Below, piece after piece: positions 794-2,190 of a DNA stretch of 40,806 nucleotides. Origin of the DNA: a virus (Duplodnaviria; Caudoviricetes); IMG/VR virus record IMGVR_UViG_3300027265_000006, positions 1-40,806 of that record; one strand, 5' to 3'. Made by a program: the position numbers and the translations under genes. Within the stretch, counting starts at the first letter, position 1. Every line of letters begins with the position of its first letter. The notes under the pieces were generated by a model. It saw only the letters and a list, made by a program, of their open reading frames with translations, ran no database searches and was not told the origin of the DNA.

Positions 794-1075
794 TCACTCC
801 TCATTATCTTCAGTTGGTCCATAAGCGGACTCAAGTTCACATCCACAGTGACAGCAACACTCTTCACCCTCATAAAGGACTGTTGCACCCTCTGCTTTCC
901 ATCCGCTATGCCTGTCATGACTATTGGTTGCCTCAACGATCAGCCTGTAATTCTCACGGGCACACTTAGGACACATAAGGCCGTCAGCCATTACCATATA
1001 AACCGGATAGCCTCCTGGCCATGCGTAAGGGCTTCTTATTGCTTCCTTCACTTGTTCAAGTATTTGATTTCTCAT
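794..1075 (-). CDS. Early hypothetical protein with Cys motifs (possible Zn binding)
   Basis: YAWPGGYPVY motif, CPKC and CCCHCGC; RBS GAGG. Confidence 0.8.
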   Translation of the reverse strand: MRNQILEQVKEAIRSPYAWPGGYPVYMVMADGLMCPKCARENYRLIVEATNSHDRHSGWKAEGATVLYEGEECCCHCGCELESAYGPTEDNEE

Positions 1076-1265
1076 CGTCTCGCCTCAATATCCAAGGATG
1101 TCTCTTAATTCGTTCCAGGTTCTAGCCTCTTCATAATCTATTCCAATCTCACCTATATCGTTGATCCATACGACCTCTACTTCCAACCTGTCCTCTACAA
1201 TCACAGCGGATGTGCTGTGTTGTTCTGTATATCTCTTCATTTGTTCAAGTATTTGATTTCTCATC
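1052..1265. repeat. 25-bp direct repeat covering the first 8 codons of two adjacent early genes
   Basis: TTGTTCAAGTATTTGATTTCTCATC at 1052-1076 and 1241-1265; both proteins begin MRNQILEQ. Confidence 0.95.
1085..1264 (-). CDS. First early gene, 59-aa acidic protein
   Basis: Hand translation MRNQILEQMKRYTEQHSTSAVIVEDRLEVEVVWINDIGEIGIDYEEARTWNELRDILGY; RBS TAAGGT; below the ORF-track cutoff. Confidence 0.75.
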   Translation of the reverse strand: MRNQILEQMKRYTEQHSTSAVIVEDRLEVEVVWINDIGEIGIDYEEARTWNELRDILGY

Positions 1266-1278
1266 TCGATACCTTATT

Positions 1279-1336
1279 GGATTGTTTCGACCTTGCCTTG
1301 GTCTCGTCAGTACATTGCTTTTATGTATACACTCTC
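1279..1336 (-). ncRNA. Type III hammerhead ribozyme
   Basis: Minus strand GAGAGT-GTA-TACAT-AAAAGCA-ATGTA-CTGACGA-GACC-AAGGCAA-GGTC-GAAA-CAATCC: full CUGANGA and GAAA core, 5-bp stem I, 4-bp stem II, stem III with one G-A mismatch, GUA cleavage triplet. Confidence 0.85.
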
Positions 1337-1442
1337 ATCTGGTTACCACCTTGCCGTCATCGCTTGCGCTCAGGTATAGGGCTTATGCCGTCTTGCCTTG
1401 GCGAATCCGCCGTTGCCGTGTGTTGTCCGCTTTAATGATTCC

Positions 1443-1471
1443 AATGTACACGGTAGTGTGTTGTTTGTCAC
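1443..1471 (-). promoter_or_regulatory. Host sigma70-type early promoter
   Basis: GTGACA (1471-1466), 17-bp spacer, TACATT (1448-1443); T-tract upstream; points into the ribozyme leader and early genes. Confidence 0.7.
1448..1461. promoter_or_regulatory. Putative operator ACACG-N4-CGTGT (1 mismatch) in the early promoter spacer
   Basis: ACACGGTAGTGTGT; related copies at 5692, 37797 and 40268. Confidence 0.6.
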
Positions 1472-1479
1472 GAAAAAAG

Positions 1480-2190
1480 TGATGTCTTGTGTCGTTTAAT
1501 TGCTTTTCTTTTGTAACTATTTGATATTTCATTAGTTAGAATGAGGATTAAATGGTGACATCTGCCGACCATGTGTGCTGTGGTGTGCTGTGGTGTGCCT
1601 GGATTGAAAACAATAGATAAGAGAAAGATGAGAAAGAATTCCGACTGCAGTCATTATTGACCACGGTCGAAAAGTGCAGGCCTTAGGCCGTCCATAATAA
1701 GGTGATATAGCACAGCACAGGACATTAAGTCTTGTGTCGTAGCAATGATATCAATATCTTATGCTATATTGGTGACGTTATTGGTGTCAACTGGCCATCC
1801 TGGTCTACCTTGCTCAATCTCTTGTCCTCTTTCTCTTCATACCTTTAACTAATTGAAAACACTCAAGATCGACAAAGAAAGCTGTTCAAAGATCGAAGGA
1901 GGACCGACCCCACCGGGGGACACCACCCAGACGCATGCGTAAAGGCAGGGCTTCACATTTTTCTGCCAAATTTCAGCCTCCAAGGACCTCCATGACGCCC
2001 TCAGATATTCCACAGTCACCTATGGTTCACCATGTCCAGCCAAGGAGTGACACCCTGAAGAAGCCAAAGGAGAGTAAAGACTCCCTCAGGGTGTCAAGTT
2101 GAGCGCGTTTATCTATGGTATTGGAGTAGTCTCATCATGCATTAGCATCTGTACCATCAGTTACCTATTAGTTAACTATAAGTTTCCTCA
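1480..2190. other. Non-coding genome-end / terminal-repeat region
   Basis: No ORFs between terminase and early promoter; short repeats, hairpin at 2048-2096, phage promoter at 2194; same position as the T7 concatemer junction. Exact termini cannot be read from sequence. Confidence 0.6.
1514..1858. promoter_or_regulatory. Cluster of IHF-consensus sites
   Basis: WATCAANNNNTTR matches: TATCAAATAGTTA (minus, 1514-1526), TATCAATATCTTA (plus, 1749-1761), near match TTTCAATTAGTTA (minus, 1846-1858). Confidence 0.5.

Follow-up and report, generated by a model that had tools for sequence, protein, structure and literature searches.

Our analysis points to a type III hammerhead ribozyme, predicted from sequence on the minus strand of a phage genome. 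Its cut would fall after A1328, upstream of an early operon that has ArdA among its genes. The reading we favour, at even odds, is that this ribozyme acts in a RiboJ-like manner, trimming the early mRNA to one uniform end, with the 109-nt orphan leader upstream of the cut being discarded. The window, that is, the whole stretch of DNA that was analysed, is a single virus record of 40,806 nt whose main genes all lie on the minus strand, and these comprise a T7-type RNA polymerase, a primase/helicase, a DNA polymerase and an anaerobic ribonucleotide reductase, as well as the structural and packaging genes (portal, capsid, tail, terminase). It is a T7-like and probably temperate phage, and we infer that it infects an anaerobe. 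The leader and ribozyme lie behind the terminase gene (3960-2251), where a run of small genes begins, and the features of the locus are as follows.

1761..1790, minus strand: P1, upstream promoter-like site TTGACA-18-TAGCAT, 10 of 12 consensus matches; would give a leader of 427 nt to the same cut
1443..1471, minus strand: P2, host-type promoter-like site GTGACA-17-TACATT, 9 of 12 consensus matches; putative start near A1436
1328..1436, minus strand: leader of 109 nt predicted to be released by the ribozyme, with putative boundaries
1419..1426, minus strand: ACRACACA repeat copy in the leader; 5 of the 6 genome copies lie between 1216 and 1740
1352..1419, minus strand: ANGGCA in four copies, with first nucleotides 1419, 1399, 1391 and 1357; two of them are single-stranded, and the others have their GG(C) in predicted stems
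1400..1411, minus strand: hairpin H1, GGCG-GAUU-CGCC, pair probability 0.86-0.93
1380..1389, minus strand: hairpin H2, GGC-AUAA-GCC, pair probability 0.95-0.96
1354..1374, minus strand: candidate standard kink-turn (k-turn), by its layout and published folding rules
1345..1352, minus strand: Shine-Dalgarno-like AAGGUGGU, -10.5 kcal/mol against -6.4 and -7.6 kcal/mol for genes 1 and 2
1321..1338, minus strand: five-codon ORF MRVYT-stop with AUG at 1338, overlapping stem III, the cut site and stem I
1278..1336, minus strand: type III hammerhead
1334-1329 with 1285-1280, minus strand: hammerhead stem III, 3 bp, G-A mismatch, 2 bp
1330-1328, minus strand: predicted cut site GUA, cut after 1328
1327-1323 with 1315-1311, minus strand: hammerhead stem I, 5 bp
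1303-1300 with 1292-1289, minus strand: hammerhead stem II, 4 bp
1310-1304 and 1288-1285, minus strand: hammerhead core strands CUGACGA and GAAA, with no deviation from consensus
1085..1264, minus strand: gene 1 of the early operon, 59 aa; the operon runs on to ArdA in L250, a second contig of this phage

Hammerhead core and predicted cut site

The predicted ribozyme carries every nucleotide of the type III core (C3 U4 G5 A6 N7 G8 A9, G12 A13 A14 A15, U16 H17), as this consensus is given in the available text of PMC3088659, and its layout is that of type III: loops close stems I and II, stem III is open and the core-adjacent pairs are intact. With a model trained on 22 type III hammerheads of other phages it scores 40.2 bits (E about 2e-10), a value somewhat inflated because the training sequences were partly picked with patterns from the window's own ribozyme, and the match is the sole one in the window and L250. 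The 22 training hammerheads covary strongly, with 86% of cells paired and two-sided changes at 14 of 16 pairs. The Rfam hammerhead models gave no match to the ribozyme even at E 10. At the fourth pair of stem III the window's ribozyme has a mismatch, a position that is paired in 21 of the 22 others. Its loop I (AAAAGCA) does not begin with the U(G) of the model consensus, and just 2 bp (GC/GC) are available for contact with loop II. By eye, a complementarity of 3-4 nt between loops I and II, whose contact serves fast cleavage, was seen in 6 of 23 other cores, two of these 23 being probably misclassified.

In the predicted fold of the full precursor, stems I and II reach probabilities of 0.7-0.95 and stem III 0.10, and forcing the whole core costs 1.4 kcal/mol. 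In the transcript from P1, stem III and much of stem II are lost in the equilibrium model, which for this 500-nt RNA disregards co-transcriptional order. Self-cleavage is plausible on these models and may be slow, since stem III is weak, its fourth pair is mismatched and loop I is atypical.

Two features add to the preliminary description of this DNA, namely the Shine-Dalgarno-like site and a five-codon ORF that spans the predicted cut. The strength of AAGGUGGU, calculated against the anti-Shine-Dalgarno motif, is equalled by 3.6% of 2000 shuffles, and the site is half paired in both predicted folds. Among 23 other type III cores, four have such a site plus a start within 30 nt before the cut. 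Positions 1347-1333 agree with the gene 1 start (1273-1259) at 13 of 15 nucleotides, from which the start of the five-codon ORF may descend as a leftover copy.

Early operon and left end

L250 (44,427 nt) comes from the same phage as the window, with 100% identity over 4374 nt, and adds 1.7 kb to the run of small genes, in which ArdA is the fifth gene of the early operon (PF07275, E 6.8e-20; L250 1072-1569, minus strand). For gene 1 (59 aa) no relative was found. Genes 1 and 2 share a 31-nt start sequence at 97% identity (1076-1046 and 1265-1235, minus strand), with the first nine codons the same but one, pointing to recombination between gene starts.

A comparable early operon is present in the temperate, T7-like phage ProddE, which has ArdA, a homologue of gene 3 (27%, E 3e-8) and the same reductase genes; its leader, of about 200 nt, contains no hammerhead and has no similarity to the leader of the window (p 0.76). 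At about 1095-1200 of ProddE (L366), an 18-19-nt inverted repeat pair was found by eye, with arms in the early promoter spacer and in the leader, and this repeat is likely an operator. A tRNA-Leu, with a UAG anticodon and a long variable arm, is represented by its 3' part at the end of the window's record (40806-40753, minus strand), which lies upstream of the gene for RNA polymerase. ProddE, a Desulfovibrio phage, has a similar stretch between integrase and repressor, and for this reason the terminal tRNA part may be where a temperate phage attaches.

Two further observations concern the rest of the window. A 54-aa ORF at 28665-28501 (minus strand) has a Pfam match to the T7 gp5.9 RecBCD inhibitor (E 2.8e-16). 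Moreover, an intergenic element occurs three times (2227-2160, 22608-22541 and 40614-40547, minus strand), its copies being 82-87% alike over about 70 nt, and a shorter core of it is duplicated at about 40444 and 40362; these elements are likely phage-polymerase promoters or processing sites.

Regarding the start of the early transcript, P1 and P2 would both feed one hammerhead cut, and the 109-nt length of the fragment hinges on P2 as the start, a start at P1 giving 427 nt. Promoter-like matches at the level of P2 are not above chance (5 seen versus 6.1 expected in 4 kb), and from gene order P2 appears to occupy the place of the host promoters in a T7-like left end. One ACRACACA copy falls inside the P2 spacer and another within the leader at 1426-1419, and the repeat is clustered round both promoters, so the first 20 nt of the leader may be a DNA-level site. 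Besides ACRACACA, which occurs five times in 1216-1740, this left-end stretch holds ACGACACAAGAC at 1495-1484 and 1740-1729 and four copies of CACAGCAC, one of them inverted at 1711-1718. These left-end repeats are candidate operators or packaging signals.

Fold, repeats and kink-turn candidate of the leader

The preliminary description held that promoter and ribozyme define a discrete small RNA, a claim that survives in part: there is a candidate fragment, but it has no stable global fold, and the start at P1 offers a longer alternative. Indeed, the leader folds worse than most shuffles (MFE -21.8, z +1.35), 184 of 200 shuffles being at least as stable, and H1 and H2 are its only well-predicted structures. 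H1 had been described before and was recovered at 1411-1400, whereas H2 is new. The leader is also poor in U, with 14 in 109 nt (12.8%, versus 21.7% for the strand), a level as low being found in 2.6% of genome windows. An Rfam search over 1328-1436 returned no family match, either at gathering or at E up to 10, and for want of Rfam support we set aside likenesses to RNAs of the pistol, twister-sister, HDV-like, T-box, c-di-GMP-I and ToxI kinds. A coding role was also considered and rejected: a 49-aa minus-strand ORF (1532-1383) and plus-strand ORFs are absent from the called genes, and the former has a single weak match (E 4e-4), to a 916-aa protein. In two RNA-labelled sequencing runs the region has no read cover, which carries no weight either way. 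No RNA dataset was listed as containing the sequence, and the two DNA datasets that were may be the origin of the window itself.

Concerning the repeats, the three ACGGCA copies reported earlier were found again (1419-1414, 1391-1386 and 1357-1352), as was CCAAGGCAA in both the leader (1401-1393) and hammerhead stem-loop II (1301-1293). Finding ANGGCA four times in the leader is a modest excess over chance (p about 0.01). Any hexamer present three times occurs in 1.0% of shuffles and in 3.4% of the 4070 genome windows, and any pentamer present four times in 0.3% and 0.9%, respectively. No other of the 137 segments that precede hammerhead-like cores reaches this ANGGCA count (four have two copies, 20 have one and 112 have none); these segments are mostly gene ends and not leaders. 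A fifth GGCA copy, in loop II, gives no evidence for a special role: one scan returned 94 distinct phage hammerhead cores with GGCA in loop II, a common loop there, where pairing with GC(C) in loop I or past stem I is possible as a loop-loop contact. The repetition emphasised in the preliminary description stands for the leader, whereas the loop II copy has this simpler cause. A 10-nt exact copy of stem-loop II lies in the leader, the similarity of leader segments to downstream ones has p values of 0.03-0.09, and an anti-Shine-Dalgarno AUACCU (1377-1372) can form 6 bp with the gene 1 site (p 0.09).

The k-turn layout proposed earlier was confirmed at 1374-1354 on the minus strand. It consists of a 2-bp C-stem with a GCAA cap, a GAU bulge (1361-1359) of the required 3 nt, the tandem pairs G1358-A1370 and A1357-G1371, and an NC stem of two G-C pairs. 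Its -1b:-1n position is C1362:G1369 and its 3b:3n position the non-Watson-Crick C1356:U1372, in agreement with the rules for ion-induced folding in the available text of PMC8191799 (-1b:-1n C:G; 3b = C, not Watson-Crick). Such a hairpin arose in 1.0% of 5000 dinucleotide shuffles, and in 0.04% with a GNRA cap. In 92 unselected viral loci (1,316,942 nt), the plain pattern matched 109 times and the rule-perfect form four times (0.9% and 0.03% per 109 nt). The latter had 9 matches in 2,111,906 nt, the two samples giving 0.03-0.05% per 109 nt (about 1 per 2,000 segments), loci retrieved by the k-turn pattern itself being excluded from these background rates; the rule filter was set after the sequence was seen, and scanning very many windows yields such cases by chance. 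Within the minus strand of the phage itself, the plain pattern has a higher rate (9 matches, 2.4% per 109 nt). The preliminary description warned that a k-turn with so short a C-stem could be chance; the C-stem does have only two base pairs, but the rarity of the rule-perfect form makes chance less likely than feared.

In a nearest-neighbour energy model, which has no k-turn or protein terms, the k-turn fold lies at -1.3 to -2.9 kcal/mol versus -6.7 kcal/mol for a competing helix, UACCU/AGGUG (gap 3.8-5.4 kcal/mol). Forcing the k-turn in the full precursor costs about 3 kcal/mol, and its predicted pairing in context, from a model equally free of such terms, is 0.13-0.16 for the C-stem and 0.02 for the NC pairs. 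Upstream of hammerheads the pattern occurs in 4 of 137 segments, three being one related sequence, which is no enrichment. We put it at about even odds that the k-turn would form when a binding protein is present.

Proposed trimming of the early mRNA and its alternatives

The placement of a hammerhead at the head of an early operon is a known phage habit, according to the available text of PMC3088659. The phage and prophage hammerheads described there by Perreault et al. (2011) resemble the window's in that a consensus core stands just upstream of the first early ORF, with ardA in the operon, and processing of long transcripts was proposed for them; at HHphage of the haloviruses HF1/HF2, which heads their early transcript, the 5' end of that transcript falls within 3 nt of the cut. 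In contrast, the window has a single ribozyme whose loop I is atypical, and its leader carries a k-turn pattern. The same text (PMC3088659) is silent on the piece released upstream and calls the functions of such early hammerheads unproven. Moreover, a scan with a type III pattern gave 22 distinct loci, a few of them chance matches in genes; in four of these, a promoter-like site within 300 nt, an unrelated leader and a type III hammerhead recur together, and the window's k-turn is absent from all four.

Other arrangements of promoter, leader and type III hammerhead were noted at L253 833-1000, L268 530-768 and L014 1551-1760, and upstream of the hammerhead in L272 and L275, their leaders being unrelated and 110-230 nt long. 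In two related phages (L016/L017, also L254/L256), a GC-rich, hairpin-like non-coding stretch lies about 230 nt upstream of a type III hammerhead, without an Rfam match at gathering; it is a candidate leader RNA for which two sequences can be compared. Furthermore, an HDV-like ribozyme match of 43.1 bits, just under gathering, lies at L259 2146-2217 (minus strand), about 600 nt upstream of a type III hammerhead.

Searches for homologues of the leader itself, in collections that may lack the records nearest to the window, were negative. Blastn against phages and plasmids gave short chance matches only. The k-turn pattern retrieved 92 loci from viral contigs, none with a hammerhead behind it, and the best (L041) lies inside coding sequence; the combined k-turn and hammerhead pattern retrieved three loci from metagenome contigs, namely L250, from this same phage, and L251 and L252, where the match lies in coding genes; and the H1-GGCA pattern retrieved seven loci, none with the hairpin or a hammerhead. 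No hammerhead was found beside the terminase relatives, 12 of them viral (44-63%) and one in a Halanaerobiales assembly (74%), and 301 genomes of the phylum of that assembly gave no further terminase match. The gene 2 family gave 440 loci, and in the best 80 of them we found two hammerhead-like cores by pattern, one weak model match and no leader similarity. At 950-969 (plus strand) of L004, a partial hammerhead core match (CUGACGAG-stem II) lies upstream of a related terminase. A Halanaerobiales assembly holds a broken T7-like prophage remnant (L278 6001-10500), with a terminase 72-74% identical and ArdA-like and integrase-like fragments, and with no hammerhead.

The trimming reading, our best one and weighed at even, is favoured by the intact core, the ArdA operon, the RiboJ and T7 precedents, the two promoter-like sites leading to one cut, the unstable leader, the recurring architecture, the likeness of leader segments to downstream ones, and the comparable ProddE operon with its unrelated leader and no hammerhead. 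Host RNA polymerase would start at P2 (or P1); stems I and II would form, the short stem III would close transiently, and the RNA would cut itself after A1328. The early mRNA would then begin with a uniform, hairpin-capped 5'-hydroxyl end; the effect of such an end on mRNA stability depends on the host. The weak stem III would let the leader drop off, and its departure would remove a competing ribosome site together with two short segments that could base-pair to the Shine-Dalgarno site of gene 1. Meanwhile, invasion of the ribozyme by G-rich stretches of the leader would be prevented by H1 and H2. The GGCA repeats would be largely local duplications of hammerhead loop II and of gene-start sequence, and formation of the k-turn would be optional.

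T7 has an RNase III site ahead of its gene 0.3. As the available text of PMC4858673 describes it, the early RNA of T7, likewise made by host polymerase, is processed by RNase III into mature mRNA during transcription, whereas the cut in the window would be independent of host enzymes and would produce a 5'-hydroxyl. In RiboJ, derived from sTRSV (PMC6206723, available text), a ribozyme between promoter and ribosome site strips the leader and leaves a hairpin at the 5' end. RiboJ was engineered with an added 23-nt hairpin, in contrast to the natural, predicted ribozyme of the window, which would work like RiboJ without being a member of it. Two sets of traits weigh against trimming. Stem III makes up about 10% of the full-precursor ensemble, with a mismatch, an atypical loop I and no Rfam hammerhead match; and the rare rule-perfect k-turn, the top ANGGCA count and the low U content are traits that a leader made only to be discarded need not have.

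The last three of these traits favour a role for the released fragment as a small RNA of its own, which we regard as a tentative and less probable account. Its three hairpins, including the k-turn, would bind a host protein of the L7Ae family (YbxF/YlxQ type), or another protein through ANGGCA, as an early decoy or scaffold. According to the available texts, bacterial YbxF binds k-turns (PMC4316175), and k-turns were found in 4 of 224 orphan bacterial RNA motifs (PMC8191799). The k-turns of these four (Actinomyces-1, drum, HOLDH, plus RAGATH-18) share with the window's candidate the 3-nt bulge, the tandem G-A/A-G pairs and favourable -1b:-1n and 3b:3n positions (PMC8191799, available text). 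The leader has, however, no Rfam match to any of them, and its C-stem is only 2 bp. Sponge RNAs such as CsrB and RsmZ carry many GGA motifs (ANGGA) in hairpin loops. The leader is like them in being short and weakly folded, with a repeated purine-rich motif and small hairpins, but its motif is ANGGCA and not ANGGA, and it has two GGA only, both as GCGGA and neither in an ANGGA loop. Against a small-RNA role, the competing helix is more stable than the k-turn, two ANGGCA copies are partly buried, which leaves no common structural context, the k-turn is not enriched before hammerheads, no homologue of the leader was found, and a Pfam scan of 35 small phage proteins revealed no L7Ae or CsrA family member. 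Thus, neither a homologue nor a partner protein supports the decoy or anti-defence function suggested in the preliminary description. A bolder form, in which the first RNA of the phage would be a ribozyme-matured 109-nt k-turn decoy for a host L7Ae-family protein, with a second protein held through ANGGCA and binding also setting the hammerhead rate, seems to us unlikely.

A cis switch that times the cut is decidedly unlikely. A k-turn-locking protein, or a ribosome at AAGGUGGU and the five-codon ORF, would block stem III, so that processing and gene 1 translation would follow the state of the host. In the folding model, stem III has a probability of 0.6-0.7 without the leader and 0.10 with it, and falls to 0.02 when the k-turn is forced, a hairpin H4 then taking the ACC that extends stem III; AAGGUGGU is also predicted to be stronger than the sites of genes 1 and 2, and the site-plus-start arrangement is seen in four other cores. 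These helices are, however, all marginal (1-3 kcal/mol) and lie inside the error of the model, AAGGUGGU is half paired in both folds, and the ORF start could equally be a leftover duplicate. A gate by UAUAC (1378-1374), earlier thought able to pair across the cleavage site, has a pairing probability of 0.00 at a cost of 4.5 kcal/mol, and such a 5-mer occurs in 29% of shuffles, which speaks against it.

Very unlikely, in our judgement, is that no discrete 109-nt RNA exists, the start being at P1 or elsewhere or the ribozyme having decayed, and the stretch being an old 5' UTR and gene start left by insertion of a hammerhead cassette and, in part, DNA-level repeats. The chance-level score of P2, the weak stem III and atypical loop I, the ACRACACA copy in the leader and the loss of stem III and much of stem II in the P1 transcript are in line with such a relic, but the core nucleotides and stems I and II are all intact, P2 is at the place of a T7-like host promoter, and equilibrium folding of 500 nt is blind to co-transcriptional order. 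Finally, a put-like antiterminator acting on host RNA polymerase for the early operon is highly improbable: the put RNA is an antiterminator placed just behind an early promoter, and the leader likewise stands directly behind a promoter-like site for the host enzyme, but the two long stem-loops are absent, the ribozyme would cut the tether, and a simple scan of the sequenced early operon (L250 1-3600) found no terminator-like site on the coding strand. By eye, two imperfect hairpins with short U runs were noted further down. The antitermination role proposed in the preliminary description thus has no site from the scan that would call for it.

In brief, promoter, leader, ribozyme and first gene fit here into 250 nt. 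If the k-turn is real, the locus would supply bacterial L7Ae-like proteins with a phage RNA ligand, and its hammerhead may be gated by a protein or by ribosomes; a literature search, with most subscription papers outside its scope, found no such case. If the cut only matures the mRNA, the locus would be a natural counterpart of RiboJ and of T7 RNase III processing.
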